DNA of 64,000 bases, taken from assembly GCA_964106645.2 (NCBI GenBank), contig OZ067040.1; one strand, written 5' to 3'. Origin of the DNA: Podarcis pityusensis. Taxonomy: Eukaryota. The notes below the pieces were generated by a model that did no database searches, was not told where the DNA came from, and was given only the letters and a program-made list of their open reading frames with translations. This document shows positions 35,183-55,654 of the stretch, piece after piece. How positions within the stretch are numbered: the first letter of the stretch is position 1; the number at the start of each line of letters is the position of its first letter. The translations under genes and the position numbers were made by a program.

Positions 35183-35344
35183 CTTTTTGTTGAGAGTTTT
35201 CCATCTTGTGTTAACATCCTCAAGATCACGCTCAAGGTTATCAGTACTAGCATTTTTAGCAGCACTCTGAATAAGGCCTTGACCCAACCAATTTACCTCC
35301 TGTTGCTTAACCTGCAGTGGTTCAATCTTTTCCTTCTCGAATAC
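35183..35344 (-). CDS. DST: DST exon ([11 protein letters not shown]...TLNKK), 162 nt, phase 0-0; acceptor shared by canonical and putative internal isoform
   Basis: aag|GTA acceptor after a pyrimidine tract, AAG|gtacgt donor. Confidence 0.92.
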
Positions 35345-38065: not shown

Positions 38066-39448
38066 GTATAATGCTGTTTTTGCTGCACTCAATAGCACTA
38101 CCTATTTGCAGGACATTGTGGGATTTGTTAAGGGGGGGGGCATTATAAAGCAGAGTTCTGAGGAACCAAGTAGTTGAAAACAGCAAACAGGTCTTACCTT
38201 TCCCACAAAATAATATATAATATGGGCAAGTTCTCTTTACTTTAGAGAAATAAACAAGGGCTGGGATGCAAAAGCTAATTTACACATACCCAAGTGTTAG
38301 CTCAGTAGTATCTTTGGCAATCGAACAGGCAGGCACATGTACACACCCCAGGTTCCATAAACTACTTTTGAAATTCCCCTCTCTTTCAAAAGAAGCTTCC
38401 TGTGTTTGAGGTTGCTGTGTGAGAAACACAAGTCCTGCTCCAGTTTAGGCCCATGGAACTAGTAACGCAGTCCTTCAATCCAACTCTCTATTTCAGATGT
38501 TCATATATTTTTAAGACAATTCCATAGCAATCCAAACCGAGTTGTTCCCCTTGATTTGTTGTTTAGATACACATACCCACTCACAAAAGTAGGAATTGAG
38601 GCTAGAGTTTGCCAGAACAGCTTAGCAACAAGTCCTAAAATAACTCAAGACACAACCAGATCAGAGTGACCAAAAACAAAAAGAACAAAATTAAATTAAA
38701 GACTTCACAAGCTCCCCATGCTTATTACAAAGCTGTTTTCTACTTCCTTACTTCATTCACCGCTCAGTAAATGTTACAAGATCTCTTGTAAAAAATCCCC
38801 TACAACTTTAGGACTACTTTTTGGCATGAAGATGCAAGGAAATAATTTCAGTACGTGCAACAAGCCTTTAATCTGTGTACTTTGGAAACCGCAGCAATCT
38901 GAGCGTCGTTGTGTATACCTTTATGATGAACAGTGCAATCCTATACTTGTCAGCTCAGAAGAAGCATGCCCATTGGGTTTAATGGGCCTTACTCCCATGA
39001 AAGTGTGTACAGTATATGGCTGCAGCTGAAATCTGGTTAAATCTGAATAGGGAAGGCCTATCTGCCCTTGAATGGCACTGACTGCTTGAAACATAATTTG
39101 AGGAGAGGGGAGGAGGGGGTGCTGAACATCAATGCCTAGTGGAAGCATTCCAAATAAAGGGTAACAGGCACCATCTGGACAATAAATAGCCATGCAACCA
39201 AACAGCTGGAAGCAATCAACCCTGTCACAAACTGCCCTTAATCAATTTACTGAAGTGACCATCTCGCCAATTTCTGCCTTCTAATAACTTGTTGGGCAAA
39301 TGATTCTAAAGGAGCTCTTTGGGTAGATTAGCAAAATCTAAACATAAGCATTCATGATGCAATTACAGAAGAAAAAATAAATAAAATAAAAAAATAAAAA
39401 ATAACCCACCCTGCAGCATGAAAAGAATGCATTTAAGTTTGGAATTAC

Positions 39449-40735
39449 CTTATAAGACAACATGCCATTGCACACTGTATCCAAGGTTTGTTCTATTTGC
39501 ATGCCTGTAGTCCAAAAGCTGAATTCAGCGCTGATTGGATTTGCTTTTTGACAGCATGTGGTATTATTAGCCTCTAAAGCCTGACAGGACAATTCTATTG
39601 CACTTGTATGGGCCATATTACTTTCCTCAGTTTCATGCAAAATCACATATTTTACTAAGTCCATATCACTAGCATGTAAAGCTGCATCATCATCATAAAT
39701 ATCTATATCCTGAGTTGAAATATCCAGGAGGTCCTTTTCAATCATCTTGTCTTGGGTGTCTAATGGCTCATTAACTTCAGCGCTGTTCCTCACTTCCTCT
39801 TTGTCTAAAGTGAAATCATGTTCCCTCTCACCATCCTGGAGCCATTGGGGATGTGCTAAGAGGTCTTCTTTCAAATATGTCAGTGGACTGCAATGTCCAT
39901 CTCCTTCCCCTTGGTTGCCCTCATAGTTCCAGAAAGGTTCTTGCTCTATATGTGAAGCATTCTGCAATTTTACTCGACAGTGTCCACTGGTAGGGGCACT
40001 TCTGGAGGTAAGCAATGAAATTTGATGTTCACTACTAGAAATGGTAGGAGAAAATGATCCAAATTTACCCACAAACTGATTATCGTCTATGGAAGATATG
40101 CTCCTAAATTGAGTTTGTTCCCCTTCTAGCACATCTTGTTTTTCTTCTCTTTCTGCTGGAGGACTGCACAGACCAGAGTCATCTTCTTCGGAAGTTAGAG
40201 AACTAGTCCCACATTTGACCTGGCCTGTTGCTGCTAAGTCGGACACATCAACAGTCCCATCAAGTGAGCACTCACTTTTATTTGCATAGTCTGCAAAATT
40301 TGGTGGGACAAGCATCCTCCAGGATCTCCTATGTTCTTTCTTTTCTGTGTGATACTTTGCTTTGGGCAAGCCAGCTGTTCGAATGATGTCACTGTTCAGC
40401 TTAAGGGCATCAAAGATCATTTTTTCATCTAGCTTATTGGCTTCCCGTCCTCTGAGTTCAAAGACACTAGAGGAGGAGAGGGCACCATTGGAGCACAATG
40501 TACTAAGGTCCAGTGTTCTATGACTATACGGCAAAGTCCGATCTGAGAAATGCCTGGAGGAGAGGCTGCCTTTAGAACCTGAGTCAATCTGTTCATTCAG
40601 CCGCACTGTGTCATAGATTGACCTCTGGGGAACATAACAGTCCTCAATATTTATATCCTCTTCTTCTTCATCACCTTTTCCTACACAAGGAGGATTCTGG
40701 CGCAAACAGTCTGGCCTGCTCAGCGGCTTCCCCAT
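39449..40735 (-). CDS. DST: Putative alternative first coding exon of DST (KIAA0754-like, 429 aa, MGKPLSRPDCLRQNP...MLSYK)
   Basis: 1,287-nt open frame, ATG in good Kozak context (gcagaaATGG), in-frame stop upstream, AAG|gtaatt phase-0 donor matching the phase-0 acceptor at 35344. The N-terminus resembles human KIAA0754 inside MACF1 (recalled). Confidence 0.8.
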
Positions 40736-41279
40736 TTCTGCAGGAATTAACAGATCTAGCACTGCTGCGAGGCTACCTTATTGGAGACACGCAACACACA
40801 TAAAGTAAAAATTAAAATAAAGTAATAGAAAAGCAGTTTTTAAAAAGTACAGTAAACTTGCCCTCAGCAGAAAGATGCTTACATACTAAAACACAGGAAA
40901 TAATTTATGAGGCGGTTAAGGTCGTAATCAGTGCATCTGTGTAAGTTTACCTGGCTGTGATTTAAAACATTTCTCCCCCTGCCCCTAAAATATAAAGTGC
41001 TTGAGCTGAAGGGGGTGGGTGGGGAGAGGGGAAACAAAAAACCCCCCACACCTTTTAATATTTTAAAATACTAACTCAACGCACAAAGACACCAACAAAA
41101 TGTACAAACCCCCCAAACCCCAGGAAAATCTTTAAGTGGCTCAAAAGACTCAGAACTTCCCACATAGCATTTCATTTCGATTTTTAGGTCAAAATGTGTG
41201 TCTTAAATCTCCAGATTAAGTCTTCAAAATGAATCAGCATTATAGCAGGCAGCACGCTATATTCAGGAGGTGACAGATT

Positions 41280-42350
41280 AACTGTAATCCATTTAAATGG
41301 CTTGCAGAATTCCATCTCCTTTATAAATAAGCCATGTTGTGGACGCTTTTGAAGAAAAACAAACCAGAAGAGCTGTGGACTGTGGAGACCAAGGCACAGA
41401 GAAAGGCTTCAGGAAAAACAAAGGTACATCCAGAGTTGTAATAATAATAATAATAATAAAAGAAGAAGCTTTCCCCCTTTTTTGGCAGCAGCTATAAATA
41501 ACCTCGATTCAAAAGGCAGTTTATTCCTTGCTTCCTTAAAGCTTCTCTGTGGTGAGTTCAGAAGTTCCATGGGAAACACAACAGTTTTCTGAGGAGCCAG
41601 ACCAATGAAATAATAATAATAATACAAAAAAGCAACGGAACAGAATTAGTAGAAAAAGAAACTTTCCCCCCAGTTTCTCTCGCAGAACACATTCCTTGAA
41701 AGTTGTTGTCCTGTTTTAAGGCAACACAGCAGGAAACTAGAGCATTTCTTCCTCCACTCCGGCACAAAGGCACAACAGATTCACATTCTGTTTAAATTCA
41801 GCAGGACTTTTTTTTTTGCATAAACGGTGGCTACAAGAGCATGGTCACTGTTTTCATCTCCGTCTTGAAGCGCAGCTGTAGCGAAGAAGGCATTAAAAAG
41901 AGCTCACAACAATAAACGCTCACATGTCCTGCCCAGCGCAGCTGATAAGCTTTCCGGCTCTCCCTGGTTTCTTATGGTCTGACAGGCATCCCTCCCAATA
42001 GTGAGCTTAAAAGAAACGCCCTTTGCTATTCTTTAGGCAACATCTGCTCCTATCGCATTCGCTCCCTGAGTATTATTCCAACCGAGCATTAGGAGGTGCC
42101 TGACCTCTTAGCTCTTCCCCCTTACGCTTCCTGCCCCACATGACTTTACTTAGCCATCTTTCACTTTTACTGTTTGTCTTGTCTCTGAATGAGGCTGAGC
42201 CTTTTCAGGGGGAGGTGCACAAAGGAGCAAGTTCCTGTCTGCAGCACTCCTGCATATCGGAGTCTGTGCTCTGTAATTCTGGAGGAAAAGAGGGTGGGTG
42301 GGTGGGTGGTGGCTCACAAGCAGAATGGAAAAACCGGTGCTAATTAGTTC
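41280..42350 (-). promoter_or_regulatory. Candidate internal promoter/enhancer upstream of the KIAA0754-like exon
   Basis: No repeat recognised here; locally more CpG. MEF2-consensus sites at 41321-41330 and 41492-41501, MCAT cattcct near 41690, E-boxes cagctg at 41873 and 41939, tgataa at 41943. Confidence 0.35.
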
Positions 42351-45194
42351 AAAATGTCAAAAATTTACTACATATTGCTTAACCGGGTAACCTGACACCA
42401 TACAAATATGGACCAGACTACCCAGGACCCTTCTAAAACACTGACAAACTGCACTTATTCTGCTTCATAACAAAAATAATAATCCAGTACTTACAAATTA
42501 TGCAGATTAACAGGAATCTGAATATAGTGGATGGTCACTTTTAATGGTATGTAGCATTATAAACTAAACTAACCAGCTGTATAATAAGAATTCAATCAAA
42601 TTGAATTACTTTCCACCATCACCATAAATCAATTTTAATTAACAGCCAGATCTTACTTCTGAGCAAGCCCCATGAAAAATCTCCATAGGATTGCATCCTT
42701 TGCTCTATATTTGTAACACATGTACATTATATTCTATAATTAGGGATTTAGCCGGCAAATTGGTCTCTCTGAATGACTACAGAATGCATTCTTCATTCAC
42801 AATCCAGTTAATCCAATGAAAAGGGATTTGCTTGATATTTTTTTACACTTCCTGGCTCTCAGACAACTGCAAATCCCAACACGCAAAGAAGTGCTGCAAC
42901 TTTTCAAAAATCTCACCCAGTACAGTACTCCTAAAAACCACACTATATTGAGGTAATAGCATGAGTAGTTTTACTTATTTGTTTCTGGATCTATTTAGAT
43001 GGAAGGCATATTATATTTTTAATAAAATAAATAGCTAAAGCACTAAAGAGAGTAAAAATAATACAGAGCAAGGAGAGCAGCTCATTTCTAAAGGCTGGTG
43101 GATTGTTAATTTATTTGCCATATGTATACCAGCATATCTACATATAAAAATGCCCACGTTGTTAACAACAATCATGTCCCACTAAAAAGACAATGTTTCA
43201 TACCACAAGCTGCAGTCACAACAAACCATATACAAAAACTACAGCAGAAAAAGCTCCCCTCCCTTGGGAAGGCAGCACTATAAGAAGGGATAGTTGCAGA
43301 CAGGAATGAAATTTCTGGCAGTCCATTGCCATACATATTCACTACTCCAAACTAAATCTTATTGTGTGCCACAAAGGATATTCCCAAATAAAGTGCAGCA
43401 AGTGTTTTCAAAACAGTGGCCCTGGATGGGGGGGCAGGAGACACTATTTGGGCTCTGCTTCAAGCAGCAAAATGGGTCAGTACTGGAATGACAATGAATC
43501 TTAAGACCCTCGCTTTGAAGGAAGTCTGTCACTCCCAACCCAGAATGTATTTATAGTCAGCTGAGCATGGATTTGTTGAACAGGCACTGTACATGTCCAA
43601 GGCAGCACCTGAACTGACACACGCAGCTACTCCTTCCATTTAAATGAATGGGGAAGACCATCTGTAAAGGAGCTCCATGTGAGCATTAGAATATACAGAG
43701 GGCTCTGGACAAAGGATAAGGTCTGTATGCAGGTAGCCACCCCAAATGTATGTTGAGTTTTTTTCTTTAATGTAGTGATAATAAATTATTATTCTTTTTT
43801 TCATTTTATATTTAAGCTGCAAAACAGATGCAAATATTGAAGTTGATGCAGCAACAAAATATAATTTTACTTTTGAAGGCGCCTCTGAAAAGAAACCATG
43901 TACTTCAGGGAAGAGTTAACACACTGCACTGATTCAATCAACAAGGTAAGAGGCCACCATCTACGACACCGACCTAAACCAATTTAAATATTAGTTCAAG
44001 CTCATCAACTGGAATATTCATCCGGGCCCAGATCTCCTATGAAGCGCAATTAGAAGGCACCTCTTGACATATATCTGAACACTGGAAATATACTGAAACG
44101 ACCCTTTCCGCATCTAGTAATGGTCTAAATGGGGGAGGGGATTTAATGAGCCATTCAGTGATAGAAACTGACATAAATCCATGTGCTTTAATAAATAAAA
44201 GAATAAATAAAAAGTGTGGCAGGTTTATGGCTGAAATATTTTGCAGACATTTCAAGGATTGTAATTACGTGGCAGAGATTGAACGCTGCTTCCCCACAAC
44301 CCCACCCTAGCATGAAGTAGCTCATTACAATGTTCAGCAAAATACAAACTAAACAAGGGCTTTTGTTTTTCAGGATCATCATAGCTGGTTGGCTCTTTGT
44401 GAGGAAATGGGCATGGTGTAACCCAAGTAAAGCAAGTTCATCTGCTGAATTTTTCTTTTGCCCACGTTCATTCAATGCGTACTTTCTTTAAAGCACAAAG
44501 GTCTACAATAAAACTGAATGAAAGTGAGAGAATGAAAGAGAAACACCATGAAATACAATATGCCAGCTACTGTAACTAACTGAAAATGGAGCTTTGATTG
44601 GAAACACTGGAAGATTTGTTCTTGGGTAGGATTTCTGAACACAAAACAAAATCCTCTTTTCTCTATGTAAATACCGATAGATAAGATATAAGAACCACAA
44701 GCAGACAATCTTCTTCTCAGCTACCCAAAAGCAATACTCGTTAAAAGTGGACTGACTACTGTTAATTGTAAAAATATATGCCTATGGACCATCGTTCTTG
44801 GTAATGATTTCAAAGGAGAGTCACTAGTCGCAATTCCAATTTGCTATTCCCTTCCTCCAATGAGCTTGGGACTACCACTTGAACTTTATTACTTTACTAT
44901 TACTTAGTGGTCTGCTTTGCACGTCATGTATATTCGTTTGTTTATTTCACAACATTTATATACCGTTGATTATAATAAAACCTCAAAGCGGTTTACAAAA
45001 AGAATAATCCAGTAACAATAACAGTAAAAAAATCACTAAAAATAAGTATTTATAACATTCAAAACAAGTAAAAACATCAATAAGCTAAAAACTGGGTCCA
45101 GACACTGTTCCAAGGCATGCACAATTGCTCCTAATTCAGATGTTATGGCTGAGTGACACCAGCATACTGATGGTACCTGGCCGCAAAACTTCTA

Positions 45195-47827
45195 TTTTTT
45201 TTTTTTTAAAGCAATTTATTGGGTTTTACAATAAGAGTAAACATAATAAACAATATAACATTTATCTTAACATAGTTTCACATTTTCTTTGGACTTCCTC
45301 ACACCTCCCGCTCCCACTTTCATCGTTATAACATTTTGTCAGCAATTTATCATCTTATTTAAATTCTTATATCCCTTCTATATTTCATAATCTTATAATT
45401 CTCAGAGGGAGCTAAATTTTCACAGTCTTACTTATTTTCTTAAAAACTTCTAAATTTAGTGGTGCTCAGTTGTTTTAGTCTAGCATCTTATTTAGCATTC
45501 ACTCAAATTACAATGCTTTTGTAAATAGTTCTTAAATTTCTTCCAATCCTCCTCAATCCTCTCTTCTCCCAGGTCACGAATTCTGCCGGTCATTTCAGCC
45601 AGTTCCATGTAGTCTATCAGTTGCATCTGCCATTCTTCCAGTGTGGGTAGATCTTGAGTTTTCCAGTGTTTTGCGAGAAGTATCCTTGCTGCTGTTGTTG
45701 CATACATAAAAAATGTCTGGTCCTTCTTTGCCACCCCTTGGCCGACAATACCCAAAAGGAAAGCCTCTGGTTTCTTAGTGAAGGTATATTTAAATACCTT
45801 TTTCAATTCATTATAAATCATTTCCCAGAACGCCTTCACTTTAGGGCAAGTCCACCAGAGGTGGAAGAACGTTCCCTCGCACTCTTTACATTTCCAACAC
45901 TTATTATCAGACAGGTGGTAAATTTTGGCAAGTTTGACTGGGGTCATATACCATCTATAAATCATTTTCATTACATTTTCTTTCAGAGCGTTACATGCAG
46001 TAAATTTCAATCCATTACTCCACAACCTCTCCCAGTCCTCAAACATGATATTATGCCCAATGTCCTGTGCCCACCTTATCATAGCCGATTTAACCGTTTC
46101 ATCTTGTGTATTCCATTTCAACAGCAAGTTATACATCCTTGAAAATACCTTAATCTTTGGTTCTAACAATTCTGTTTCTAGTTTCGATTTCTCCACCTGG
46201 AACCCTAGTTTCTTATCATTTTTAAAAACTTCTTTAATCTGAGCGTAATGTAACCAATCTCGCACTTTGTCTTTCATTTTCTCCAAACTCTGCAATTTCC
46301 AATTGTCTCCATCCTTTTCTAGTATTTCCCAATATTTTGGCCATTTAGCCTCCATATTGGGTCTTTTTCGGGCCTTAGCTTCCAGAGGTGAAAGCCACCT
46401 TGGTGTTTTATTTTCCAGCAAGTCTTTATATTTTGTCCAGACATTAAACAGTGATTTTCTGACAATATGGTTCTTAAAGGCCTTATTTGCTTTAACCTTG
46501 TCATACCATAAATATGCATGCCAACCAAAAGCGTTGTTAAACCCTTCCAAATCCAACACATCAGTGTCTTCAAGAAGTAGCCAGTCTTTTAGCCAGCAGA
46601 ACGCTGCGGCTTCATAATACAACTTTAAGTCTGGCAGGGCAAAGCCCCCTCTTTGTTTTGCATCGGTTAATATCTTAAACTTAATTCTGGGCTTTTTGCC
46701 CTGCCAGACAAACTTAGAAATGTCTCTCTGCCACTTCTGAAAGCACTCCGTTTTGTCCAAAACCTGAAGTGTTTGAAATAAAAACAACATCCTTGGCAAT
46801 ACGTTCATCTTGATAGCAGCAATTCGGCCTAACAAAGAAAGTTTCAATTTTGACCAACTATCTAAGTCTCTCTTAATTTCTGTCCAGCATTTTTCATAAT
46901 TATCCTTAAATAGACTTAGATTTTTTACTGTTATGTTTACCCCTAGGTATTTTACTTTTTTAACCACATTGAGTTCCGTCTCATTCTGAAACCGTTCTGA
47001 CTCTGTGTCAGTCAAATTTTTCCCCAAAACCTTAGTTTTCTGTTTATTTAGTTTAAATCCAGCCACCCGACCAAAGTCATTAATCAGTTGTAATACTCTT
47101 TTCGTACTGGGCTCTGGCTTCTGCAAGGTCAAGACCAAGTCATCTGCGAAAGCTTTTAATTTATATTGTTTCTGACCGACCTGAATTCCTTCCACCAACC
47201 GATCCCCTCTAATCATGTTCAATAGCACTTCCAGAACCGAAATAAATAACAAAGGGGAAATAGGGCAACCTTGTCGTGTCCCTTTTTCAATTTTGAACTC
47301 TTCTGTAACCACATTATTAACTATCAATTTAGCTTTCTGTTCTGAATATATCGCCTCAATCCCATTCTCAAAACCCCGTCCCACTCCCATCTCTTTTAAA
47401 TTTCCCATCATAAATTTCCAGGAGATATTGTCAAAGGCCTTCTCCGCGTCTATAAAAATTAAAACTGCTTTTGTATTTATATCTGTTTGCAAAAGTTCCA
47501 AGATGTCAATAATGTTCCTTGTATTAGCAAACAGATGTCTACCTGGGAGAAAGCCAGCCTGGTCCTTGTGAATTACTTCATTTAAAACTTTTTTAAATCT
47601 ATTTGCCAAAATGTCTGCAAATATTTTGTAATCCACATTTAAAAGAGAGATGGGACGGTAGTTCTTAAGTTGTGTCTTTTCAGTTTCTGACTTTGGTATT
47701 AATGTGATGAACGCTTCCTTCCACGACTCCGGTGCCCTCTTCCCCTCCATAATTTCATTGCTGACCTCCATCAAGGGTTGTATCAAATAGTCTTTTAATG
47801 TCTTATAGTACTTGGAGGTCAGCCCAT
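45195..47827 (-). mobile_element. 5'-truncated L1-clade LINE retrotransposon with poly(A) tail and 18-bp TSD
   Basis: TSD ctggccgcaaaacttcta at 45177-45194 and 47828-47845. T13 at 45195-45207 is poly(A) on the minus strand. AATAAA (minus) at 45215-45220. Confidence 0.95.
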
Positions 47828-47837
47828 CTGGCCGCAA
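45492..47837 (-). CDS. L1 ORF2 fragment: reverse transcriptase plus C-terminal Cys/His knuckle, endonuclease missing
   Basis: Motifs PDG, YRPISLLNVDYKI, DAEKAFD, GTRQGCPISPLLF, FADD, KYLG, CWKC-x8-H-x4-C. The nominal start codon lies in the TSD, so this is probably not translated. Confidence 0.9.
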   Translation of the reverse strand: MRPDGLTSKYYKTLKDYLIQPLMEVSNEIMEGKRAPESWKEAFITLIPKSETEKTQLKNYRPISLLNVDYKIFADILANRFKKVLNEVIHKDQAGFLPGRHLFANTRNIIDILELLQTDINTKAVLIFIDAEKAFDNISWKFMMGNLKEMGVGRGFENGIEAIYSEQKAKLIVNNVVTEEFKIEKGTRQGCPISPLLFISVLEVLLNMIRGDRLVEGIQVGQKQYKLKAFADDLVLTLQKPEPSTKRVLQLINDFGRVAGFKLNKQKTKVLGKNLTDTESERFQNETELNVVKKVKYLGVNITVKNLSLFKDNYEKCWTEIKRDLDSWSKLKLSLLGRIAAIKMNVLPRMLFLFQTLQVLDKTECFQKWQRDISKFVWQGKKPRIKFKILTDAKQRGGFALPDLKLYYEAAAFCWLKDWLLLEDTDVLDLEGFNNAFGWHAYLWYDKVKANKAFKNHIVRKSLFNVWTKYKDLLENKTPRWLSPLEAKARKRPNMEAKWPKYWEILEKDGDNWKLQSLEKMKDKVRDWLHYAQIKEVFKNDKKLGFQVEKSKLETELLEPKIKVFSRMYNLLLKWNTQDETVKSAMIRWAQDIGHNIMFEDWERLWSNGLKFTACNALKENVMKMIYRWYMTPVKLAKIYHLSDNKCWKCKECEGTFFHLWWTCPKVKAFWEMIYNELKKVFKYTFTKKPEAFLLGIVGQGVAKKDQTFFMYATTAARILLAKHWKTQDLPTLEEWQMQLIDYMELAEMTGRIRDLGEERIEEDWKKFKNYLQKHCNLSEC

Positions 47838-49659
47838 AACTTCTAATGGCAGCTCCCAGTCAGGAAATTGTTGCTACCAATCTAAACTATACCATGTAAT
47901 GATTGGACCATGACAAAGCAGTGCACTTCCACACCCAACCTCAGTCCATCCCTCATGTCATTTGGGGCAAAGACTACATCAAGGGTGTCTCCTAAATGAT
48001 GTGTTGGACCAATGACTATTTGAGAGAGCTGTATGGTTGTAATGAAGGCCTTAAGTCTTGAGCTCAGCCAATACAGTGGCAGCCTCTAATGGATATTGAA
48101 ATAGTCCAGAGACTACCCTGACCAGCTTGATCAAGCATGCTGCTGGGCAACAGGGTAATTGATAGACCAGCAGCATCCCCAGTCTGCTTCTTTGGCCAAG
48201 CACCAGGTACAGACCCTCTGATAGCCTGTCCCAGGATCAAGAGATTTGCTAGTAAAGGAGATGGTGCAGTTATGGACAATAGCAACACACATACCCTCAA
48301 CCCCTCACCGTAGCTTACTGCTAAAACAAGGAACGGAGACCAAAAAGCTAGGTCTCTGCCTCAAATGGTGGTCGTCCACAGGAAACACCTTGGTTACAGA
48401 TCATGATTATGGTGGAGAGAGACATGCCACAAGCCCAAGTTAAGATGACAGGCTAAGTCAAACCATGGCTTAGCTCAGTCTGGTGTAGCAGCAAAACAAC
48501 TGAGGAGCAGCAAGATGACCATTATCTCCTCTCTGGGAGCAGCACACTTGCACTAAGAGATGGTTTGTCTTAGTGTGGCATGAAAACCAGGTCACTGTCT
48601 GAAAGAAGCCCACACCATCATCTCAAAAGGCATATACTGTGAGGAAAAATTTACAATTTTGCGGTTGACTGTTGACTTATTATTGGATAAAGTGGATAAT
48701 GCGAACCACTTTTCATATTCCTATTTGTAAATGAAGCATGGTTTAAAATGCATTTACATATATAAAAACAGATAATACGGATTATCAGGAATAATATAAT
48801 TTAATTAATTAATTAATATACCGCCTTATACCCACAGGTCTTAGGGCGGTTAACAGGATAAAATCACAATATAAAAACACAAAATACATAATCAAAATAA
48901 ACACAAGAACAACCCGCTAACACCCCCCACAAATAATCAGAGAGGGAAAACAAAATTTAAAACACACAGTATTTGTAATAAAACATATAAAAATACCCAT
49001 CAGGTATCATCAAGGAGCAGATTAAAAGATCAATTTAACTATCTTTCAAATCAAAACATTTTAGCCATTGGTTCCCACCCCCACCCAATTGTAACCATTC
49101 ATAGAATGGTTCATAGAAATAATAATACAAAGCTCTGTTTTTCTTCTTATTGCAAACATAGGTGTATATCTTCAAGAAAAAGAGAGGTCCTTCCGAAAGG
49201 ACCTTCAGAAGTGTGCTATTAAACCCATTCAAGTTGCCCTCACATAACCTGAATTGGATGCTAAAGACAAAGAAAGAGACTAATCTTTGTAGTCCAACAA
49301 CAGGGATTTGTGAAGCTTTGTGTGCGACTGTTGCCAAAATGCATTGTTGCATGTGATGAACACATTCTGCCAAGCAAATTGGATCCAGACTTAGTTGTGC
49401 TTAGAGTAGATCCATTGAAATCAACAGGGCTTTAGAAATGATTTAAGTCCTGTTCATTTCCAGTGGGTCTACTCTAAGCATGACTAAGTGAATACAAGAA
49501 GAAGAAGAAGAGTTTGGATTTGATATCCCGCCTTTCACTCCCCTTCAGGAGTCTCAAAGCGGCTAACATTCTCCTTTCCCTTACAACCCAAAGATGTTCT
49601 AGATAAAATGTACATGGAATGAACATGCTGAATGTTTTCATAAATAAACAAATAAATCA

Positions 49660-53658: not shown

Positions 53659-55133
53659 CTTAAATACGTTCAGCTGCTGATTTATCATCTCAATTTCCAT
53701 TCCAACAGAACCCTGTGACTCTTCATGCTCTTCAACTTCCCCAAGCAGTTTAGAAAACCCCTTTAGTTTACTGTAGAACTCTTCAACGCGGCTAATAGTC
53801 CCTTCAATCTGTTCATCTCTGGCTTTTGCTCTGTCTAGCAACTTGTTGCACTGCTTATTTAAAGCCTCCAAGTCCCTTTTTATACCTGCAAGATCTGGAG
53901 AAGCTTCAGCTTCATTTGCTAGCATCATTTTGCAGGTATTATTTGCATTTTCATTACTGGTTATGAGTTCCTCCAACTTTTTCAGGAAAGTTTTTATATC
54001 CTTTCGCTGTGACTGCAGTGTGACAAGATCCCTACCCACAGAATCCATGCTGTCCAATTCATCGTCGAACTCTGCAAACTGAGAAAACATCTCTCGGATG
54101 CTGTTTTGGAAATGGCCAATTCCCTGGAGTTTAGTCTCCAGAAATGAACATTTATCTTCAACCTGCTGACTGATGGTGCTGAATTCTTCTTCTAACGTTT
54201 CTGCCTGCAACAAGAGGTCAGAGACACCTGATGAATCTGAAGCATCTGCCACCAGTTCTTGGGCAAGCTTTTTTGTAAGGTCCACTTGAGCCTTCACGGC
54301 CTGGAGTGTTTTCTGCTGAGCCTGCATAATCGTCAAGTGTTTGTTACTGTAAGTCTGGGGTTTGAGAGAATCGTGTGTTTCCAGCTGTTCTCTGGCATTC
54401 TTCAGCTGCTCTTCAACATCCTTTGATGACTCTTGAAACTCTTTCAGTCTCTGAGACATCTTTTCCAGACAATCTCTCTTAGCATGCAGTTGTTCTGTGA
54501 CTATATCCATGTTCTGGATCAGCAGTGTCTTCTCCTCTTCAATAATGTCTTTGTCTGTCTGACAGGCACTGAGTAATGTCTCAGCTGCATTACTTAATAG
54601 CTCCACCAACCCTTGGTGTTTGTCTAGGTCCTTCTGCCAGCTCTTCACCTGAGCGATGGAATTCTCTAGCCGAGCAGGATCTATGCTCATTTCTATTTGA
54701 GAGATATTGCTTTGGCATTTCGCTATCCAGGGTTGTAGGTTTTCTACATGCTCTCTGTATCTAAGGGCTTTTTCCAAACAATCATTTAATTTATCTTGCC
54801 TTTCTTTAACTTGCTTGTTCATTTCATCCCAGTTACCTCTGAGCAAGTTCAGCTGGGCCTGCAGCTCAGCCTTCTCTGCTCCCTGAGTCTTTTGGAGTAA
54901 ACTTTCGCCTTCTGTGATGATTTTTTCATAAGAACCAGTCTGGTCAGACAAGACAGCCTTGAACTCTTTCTGATCATCAATTAATGTCCACAGAGACTCC
55001 AGCTTGGTAGAGATGGGACACGGCTGATTCTGTTCTTCCTTCTTTTTGTCCAGCCAGGCCTGAAAGTCCTTAGACATTTGCTGGAACTGATGAGAACTAA
55101 CATAAGTTGACTGAAGTTGCTCAATGTGATTGC
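53659..55133 (-). CDS. DST: DST large rod exon ([10 protein letters not shown]...QQLNVFK), 1,475 nt, phase 1-0
   Basis: cag|GC acceptor, AAG|gtaaga donor, 491 codons of spectrin repeats. Confidence 0.94.
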
Positions 55134-55654
55134 CTGCAGAAGACAAACAAACAAACAAACAAACAAAAGTTATTAAAATCCGTGTCTTTGAGTGGCTTCT
55201 AACTAGGATTTTGGTTGATGTTATTTCAATCAAGGAGAAACATTATGTTATAGGAAAATGCACCCTATTGCAATTTGAGATGTTTTATTAAACATTATTC
55301 TTCATTGGAGCTTGTTAGCTGATGGGTTTATTGAAGACCACCAGCTTGGAAAATAATAGTATTGCAGCCTAAAATAATAACCCCTTGATAATAATAATAA
55401 TCCCTTGACAACAAGAGATTCTTGAGGGTGGGGAACTAAACAGGTAACCAGGATAGTATGATCACTAGCGCCACTATAAACATCACAAACATAAACGACA
55501 TGCACTATGAAAAGTAAAGCTTGCAGTAATCCCTCAACAGTCATTGAGATAAAATGCTTCCAAATATCACTGCCAGTCCTGTTACAACTTTACAGAACTC
55601 CTGTTGGGACTCCCTTGTTGAGTCTGAAACAACGCCCCCCCCCCCCCCAAGTAA

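Follow-up and report, generated by a model that had tools for sequence, protein, structure and literature searches.

Reviews of the spectraplakins DST (dystonin) and MACF1 describe an isoform diversity that lies mainly in N-termini around the actin-binding domain and, in the portions of these texts available to us, confine forms without that domain to epidermal DST (PMC6975176, PMC3352950, 10.1101/122010). The same portions credit a myristoylation motif to the type-3 N-terminus alone, and a legend among them points to an extra exon that is conserved in both DST and MACF1 and may be an isoform of its own or may provide an alternative start. The type-3 N-terminus, found in dystonin-a3/b3, is like the one described here an alternative DST N-terminus, and the myristoylation motif that an initial annotation of this DNA had ascribed to it is given, in the available review text, as a putative one (PMC6975176, PMC3352950). 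It precedes CH2 and keeps the plakin domain and the whole rod, whereas the short form described here starts within the rod; the type-3 motif stands directly before a single CH domain, and spectrin repeats follow our exon.

The nearest homologue belongs to MACF1, whose isoforms 6/7 (KIAA0754; UniProt O94854, 3,514 aa, PE=2) contain a homologous exon whose first 170 aa are 51-56% identical to those of the DST exon. They share with the DST exon the 12-residue start and the junction into the spectrin rod, and differ from it in length (about 1,000-1,400 aa for the MACF1 exon, about 430 aa for that of DST). The extra exon of the review legend is probably the exon of this KIAA0754 family. Orthologous DST exons starting MGKPLSRPDCLR exist in human (FLJ26213, Q6ZP91), chimpanzee ("DST isoform 17") and pig (A0A480IYE4), as database records only.

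MACF1 has also been described, in the part of the report available, as myristoylated after caspase cleavage at G5087 (PMC4200515). The G5087 peptide aligns to residue 302 of the 493 encoded by the exon just upstream of ours (41% over 29 aa), about 190 aa before the exon junction, and the aligned DST residue is Ser. The caspase-made C-terminal fragment would thus carry its myristate on nearly the same C-terminal part; its modification is post-translational and apoptotic, whereas the DST start is gene-encoded. Among N-myristoyltransferase (NMT) substrates that begin with Gly-Lys, the NCS1/HPCA family, ARF6 and TMEM106A/B have, like the DST start, G2-K3, S6 and a hydrophobic residue 5; the DST start differs in R7 for K7, in P4 and in the two cysteines that come after.

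The exon is known to databases, and the lipid-anchor reading is absent from the literature searched: a search of openly available papers and supplements returned no acylation or function for this exon in DST or MACF1. Here we analyze the locus in a 64-kb stretch of the Podarcis pityusensis genome ("the window") and propose, with a probability of roughly 0.55, that the first 17 residues of the exon are the dually acylated start of a short DST, by which a microtubule rod would be hung on the membrane without actin.

A probable alternative-start exon within the DST spectrin rod

On its minus strand the window carries exons for the spectrin repeats of dystonin, and the initial assignment of the gene to DST holds. 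An exon of 429 codons sits in an 18-kb intron, between the exon ending at 53659 and the exon starting at 35344. The features discussed below are, in the order of transcription:

53659..55137, minus strand: upstream DST spectrin exon, absent from the short form (3' end 53659, phase 0; 5' limit approximate)
40736..42035, minus strand: candidate 5' leader and internal promoter zone, from RNA-like contigs
39449..40735, minus strand: coding portion of the internal DST exon that supplies the alternative start (429 codons, phase-0 donor AAG/GTAATT)
40700..40735, minus strand: codons 1-12, MGKPLSRPDCLR, the near-invariant N-terminus, with a predicted NMT site at G2 (GKXXS, L5, basic residue 7) and C10
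40685..40687, minus strand: C17, second candidate S-acylation site (Cys at 16-18 in listed relatives)
40637..40675, minus strand: acidic linker, residues 21-33, with 8 D/E and no K/R, ending in C33
40583..40648, minus strand: second conserved block, residues 30-51 (Y34, Y41; predicted helix 40-52), from conservation and structure prediction
39338..39448, minus strand: read-through beyond the donor, 36 further codons to a stop (possible stand-alone product)
35186..35344, minus strand: next DST exon (FQKE exon), predicted splice partner (phase 0; 3' limit approximate)

Translation of the 17 minus-strand codons from 40735 to 40685 gives MGKPLSRPDCLRQNPPC (M1 G2 K3 P4 L5 S6 R7 P8 D9 C10 L11 R12 Q13 N14 P15 P16 C17), and so confirms the opening M-G-K-P-L-S followed by R7, C10, R12 and C17. 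The ATG at 40735 is held in an open frame running from 40777 to 39338 (minus strand), in the context GAA-ATG-G (G at -3 and at +4), and the nearest in-frame stop lies 15 codons upstream. A start of the form MGxxx[S/T] with a Cys within 20 open codons is found at 3 of the 2,649 ATGs of the 64-kb window, two of the three lying outside the exons mapped in it; such a start is therefore not rare by chance, and conservation is what raises this one above chance.

No phase-0 acceptor was found within 130 nt of the ATG, all seven candidates there requiring phase 1 or 2, so that the exon can only be a new start, in agreement with its initial description as a new N-terminus. The possibility of an in-frame cassette exon was rejected, since the acceptors have the wrong phase and joining the upstream phase-0 exon at the two best of them leads to a stop within 7 codons. 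One acceptor-like AG after a pyrimidine-rich run lies at 40777 (minus strand), 41 nt before the ATG, and contigs of two runs cross it unspliced. At the other end, records from gecko, turkey, pig, chimpanzee and mole-rat share the predicted 39449-to-35344 junction, and a phase-0 donor marks this junction in records that range over gecko, bird, mammal, fish, shark and hagfish. The exon thus lies in the same rod intron, and makes the same phase-0 join to the FQKE exon, as the KIAA0754 / MACF1 isoform 6/7 family. The same intron also contains a non-LTR retrotransposon, 4.8 kb upstream of the ATG, whose 793-aa open frame (45492-47873, minus strand) encodes the reverse transcriptase domain RVT_1 (E 1.5e-38).

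The exon is predicted to be mostly unstructured, and is acidic after residue 150. An AlphaFold model of residues 1-150 has low confidence (pLDDT 56.7, pTM 0.16), and searches with the exon gave no family in Pfam, nothing among PDB sequences and nothing in the ESM Atlas (best score 0.76).

Conservation of the N-terminus in DST and MACF1

Homologue searches returned 216 longer and 194 similar-length matches (410), of which the best 120 of each were compared, giving 240 homologues that divide into 123 DST-type and 117 MACF1-type records. The DST-type records include the human cDNA FLJ26213, lizards, snakes, birds, turtles, opossum, sturgeon, catfish and whale shark, and the MACF1-type relatives carry the names KIAA0754 or MACF1 isoforms 6/7; this genome holds one copy of each type. 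With a homologous N-terminal 150 aa starting MGKPLSRPDCLR, the DST exon is a paralogue of the KIAA0754 / MACF1 isoform 6/7 exon, and is hence an annotated exon and not a new one, a family membership that the initial annotation had missed.

Residues 1-12 are identical in 238 of the 240 listed homologues (122/123 DST-type, 116/117 MACF1-type), a figure biased toward conserved starts by the ranking of the list on score. C10 is present in all 240, a Cys at position 16-18 occurs in 123/123 and 117/117 of the two types, and C33 is found in all 240 and is replaced by G in divergent fish copies. The check proposed initially, for conservation of G2, S6 and C10 across DST and MACF1, therefore gave a positive answer and a second conserved Cys besides. 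Past residue 149, identity drops to 0.2-0.4 across most of the exon. Short blocks common to DST and MACF1 (residues 101-115 and 136-144, about 40300-40435, minus strand) occur in this otherwise divergent exon; residues 104-111 are predicted to form a helix, and an RRSW...P motif is also present in these blocks.

Between the DST and MACF1 copies of this genome, 6 of the first 12 codons differ, all silently, which indicates that the constraint acts on the protein. Conservation at the DNA level was rejected on the same silent differences, and on the upstream DNA of the paralogues, which matches over at most 15 nt. In-frame upstream extensions of 5-98 aa precede the motif in 40 of the 123 DST-type and 1 of the 117 MACF1-type frames, and the commonest of these (38 aa, 16 records) is 69% alike, as compared to 99.7% for the 38 aa that start at MGK. 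Judged from these alignments, the conservation boundary falls at the Met.

More distant relatives came from a word-free HMMER search of 1.84 billion representatives, which gave 50 matches. MGKPLS is present in 43 of the 50, and positions 1-6 are thus fixed by choice among these 43. Beyond them, position 7 carries R in 40 and, in the other 3, K, the residue that NMT prefers; P8 and C10 are present in 43/43, and D9 is altered in 8, in copies that add cysteines. Every one of the 43 has at least two Cys in its first 22 aa, with 3 in seven proteins and 5 in one. P4 and P8 are invariant, and L11 and R12 nearly so. The matches include a hagfish model in which the motif is fused to spectrin repeats, and no named invertebrate, though many of the 50 matches are unnamed. 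The seven matches without MGKPLS comprise two chance-like ones, two fragments and three gene models with another lead sequence. Fourteen short matches were kept out of the counts; among the seven inspected, six have the 12-mer, and the deviating one (P0311) has changes resembling those of a C-to-T converted library.

A divergent teleost group (P0266-P0270, P0273, P0275 and P0276, one of which is si:ch73-305o9.3) keeps MGKPLSRP and has extra cysteines. Scans of 7 of its 8 models showed no spectrin repeat in any of them, and the group is possibly a stand-alone offshoot of the exon. Two DST-type frames, P0310 and P0198 (one from Peromyscus californicus), stop early, at 190 and 297 aa, which may reflect decay of the exon in some lineages or sequence error.

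The block of residues 30-51 equals the N-terminus in conservation, and strong conservation in this exon is therefore not peculiar to the lipid motif. With its two tyrosines after an acidic run, this block resembles tyrosine-kinase/SH2 docking sites, and it is possibly a docking site for a protein or for phosphotyrosine binding.

Predicted myristoylation of Gly2

The classical NMT pattern requires a small uncharged residue at position 3, and the DST start fails it at K3. The start does carry the GK-class motif G2-K3-x-x-S6, taking the inferred N-terminus as the true one, and of the accompanying features of that class, a hydrophobic residue 5 and/or K7, it has L5, residue 7 being R. GK-starting human peptides are myristoylated on the glycine under the rule GKXXSX, and the accessible part of that study reports that K3 is less favorable than small residues, that this disadvantage is offset by K7 or by a hydrophobic residue 5, that S6K7 weighs more in the K3 context and that a basic residue 7 helps GK starts (bioRxiv 10.1101/2021.06.22.449375). 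A positive residue 7 is further described, in the accessible part of a second study, as favoring the closed NMT loop (PMC7048800), and TMEM106B, a GK start without K7, is reported in the available text to be myristoylated and to be acylated on both G2 and K3 (PMC12268641). The accessible parts of the published NMT rules searched contain no statement on Pro4 (10.1101/2021.06.22.449375, PMC7048800). The initially claimed fit of G2 and S6 to the NMT consensus thus stands for the GKXXS rule, but the fit is that of a marginal GK-class start and not of the classical pattern. Overall, these features suggest that Gly2 is probably myristoylated.

The N-terminus is missing from the available myristoyl-proteomics supplements of PMC4200515, PMC6593224 and PMC10696250, and the available part of the PMC12955691 supplement lists O94854 with 0 unique peptides and no ratios. 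These absences are weak negatives, because they hinge on expression and on database content.

The alternative that survives best, although we regard it as unlikely, is that the 12-mer, bearing hardly any lipid or none, is conserved as a motif for protein binding or as an N-terminal glycine degron, and that a partner protein positions the isoform. GK starts are recognized by the Gly/N-degron pathway. The invariant P4 and P8 and the near-invariant residues 11-12 exceed what the NMT pockets need, neither K3 nor P4 is optimal for NMT, the equally conserved block 30-51 is not a lipid signal, and the N-terminus is absent from the myristoyl-proteomics supplements searched. Three observations among the relatives are, by contrast, what an acylation signal predicts: the sole change at position 7 among the 43 is R to K, the divergent fish copies lose D9 and gain cysteines, and conservation opens exactly at Met-Gly.

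Candidate second anchor at C10 and C17

An anchor combining myristate with nearby basic residues, which the initial annotation had allowed for, finds no support here, since there are 4 K/R in residues 1-20 followed by 8 D/E in residues 21-33. A polybasic anchor of the Src/MARCKS type was accordingly rejected, as there is no basic cluster and an acidic run follows. In the absence of a polybasic patch, palmitate on C10/C17 would have to serve as the second anchor. Conserved cysteines near Gly2, as expected of a dually acylated protein, are present at C10 and at 16-18 in 240/240 listed homologues, and their position and conservation tip the balance modestly toward palmitoylation of C10/C17. No palmitoylation report on this exon was found in the literature search.

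It is rather improbable that Gly2 is myristoylated and the cysteines are not acylated, which would leave a weak, reversible membrane contact or binding to a lipid carrier. Most Src-family and G-alpha cysteines lie nearer Gly2 than C10 and C17 do, and this greater distance, the acidic run that directly follows and the silence of the literature searched on palmitoylation are consistent with a single lipid. Against it stand at least two Cys within the first 22 aa in 43/43 divergent matches and the extra Cys in 8 of them, and eNOS, in which a distal palmitoylation follows myristoylation, provides a precedent for the spacing.

Architecture of the short isoform

Records P0408 and P0415, from other animals, contain unbroken frames of 2,689 aa that run from MGK through GAR to the C-terminus on contigs of less than 10 kb, and 37 pieces matching them stretch over more than 57 kb in this genome; given this difference in span, the two contigs most simply represent spliced mRNA. 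Mammalian records likewise join the exon via spectrin repeats to EF-hand and GAR, at about 2,690 aa (2,680 aa in pig P0324). In the turtle model P0004, Pfam identifies spectrin repeats, EF-hands and GAR, which makes it a spectraplakin isoform, and no actin-binding CH or plakin domain; it is thus not a canonical actin-microtubule cross-linker. The initial proposal of a short isoform without an actin-binding domain is upheld by this model, in which the plakin domain, left unmentioned there, is missing too. In the present genome the exons encoding the EF-hands and the first half of the GAR domain map 16-17 kb past the left end of the window, and the claim that the isoform reaches GAR outside the window is supported by the spliced homologue records. 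The exon therefore likely begins a short dystonin that lacks the actin-binding end; in this species, the spliced joint between exon and rod is predicted from homologue records.

The exon may also give a stand-alone protein without GAR, a product that the initial annotation did not consider. We find it quite improbable that this is its main product, in which case donor read-through would yield a lipid-anchored unstructured protein and uncouple the anchor from microtubules. Consistent with such a product, mouse isoform 7 / KIAA0754 is annotated at 1,115 aa with no Pfam family, most listed homologues are single-exon frames, and the frame here continues to a stop at 39338. However, single-exon frames are also expected of DNA contigs, the phase-0 donor occurs at the same junction from gecko to hagfish, spliced full-length frames exist, and the two products can coexist.

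Transcription and translation start

Contigs of two runs that we guessed to be RNA cover the region from 40705 to about 41,900-42,035 with no credible joint, and thus run some 1.2-1.3 kb unspliced upstream of MGK, with zero depth over 42145-44880 in both. Coverage ending near 42.0 kb followed by zero depth is the pattern expected of a local transcription start, although the runs may stem from a related species and a start cannot be placed exactly from contigs. In the roughly 12% examined of each of two raw RNA runs, no read was found at 40705-40992. The 1.3-kb candidate leader contains 22 upstream ATGs, and no frame opened by them extends to the main ATG, so that this ATG would be translated efficiently only with a start closer to it or with splicing of the leader.

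At 41901, one contig of run X1 has a loose end of 29 bases without a match anywhere in the window; these bases may belong to an upstream exon or an allele, or be artefactual. CpG observed/expected is 0.48 at 41501-42000, where the far end of the RNA-like coverage lies, and so mildly exceeds the median of the window (0.19; maximum 0.68). Two MEF2-like sites, at 41321 and 41492, were discounted as evidence, as there are 22 such matches across the window.

A main start elsewhere, with upstream ATGs or an upstream exon giving a longer N-terminus in which Gly2 is internal, is very improbable: the upstream Met of 40/123 DST-type frames would bury Gly2 if used, and the leader has its 22 ATGs and several phase-1/2 AG acceptors just before the start, but here an in-frame stop precedes the ATG by 15 codons, the extensions are poorly conserved and occur in one MACF1-type frame, and the contigs of two runs span the candidate acceptors without a joint.

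Discussion

Our analysis leaves the initial reading of this locus standing in its new start and its reach to GAR, and weakens it in the strength of the NMT fit and in the basic-residue route. The dually acylated start that we favor would operate as follows. An internal promoter just upstream, to which the RNA-like contigs ending near 42.0 kb point, would drive a transcript translated from the ATG at 40735, as conservation beginning exactly at the Met suggests. The Met would be removed and NMT would, with good likelihood, act on GKPLSR; S-acylation of C10/C17, predicted with lesser confidence, would supply the second anchor. The first roughly 430 aa would form an unstructured, acidic spacer that leads into spectrin repeats, EF-hands and GAR, as in homologue records and as predicted for this species, and the protein may thereby tether membrane to microtubules. 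We consider a full membrane-to-microtubule linker evenly balanced between right and wrong. Somewhat below even odds, we tentatively suggest that from hagfish to human both genes produce actin-independent isoforms, of about 2,700 aa from DST and about 3,500 aa from MACF1, with a near-invariant N-terminus that is myristoylated and palmitoylated, each a membrane-anchored rod-EF-GAR protein whose tyrosine block would serve as a regulated docking site.

The short spectraplakin form without the actin-binding domain is real and under-studied. The interpretation of mutations and knockouts of DST and MACF1 would be affected as well: lesions upstream of the exon would be expected to spare this form, and downstream ones to hit it. 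If our reading is true, an acylation-controlled, direct microtubule-membrane route would exist vertebrate-wide, in which a lipid anchor replaces the actin-binding domain.
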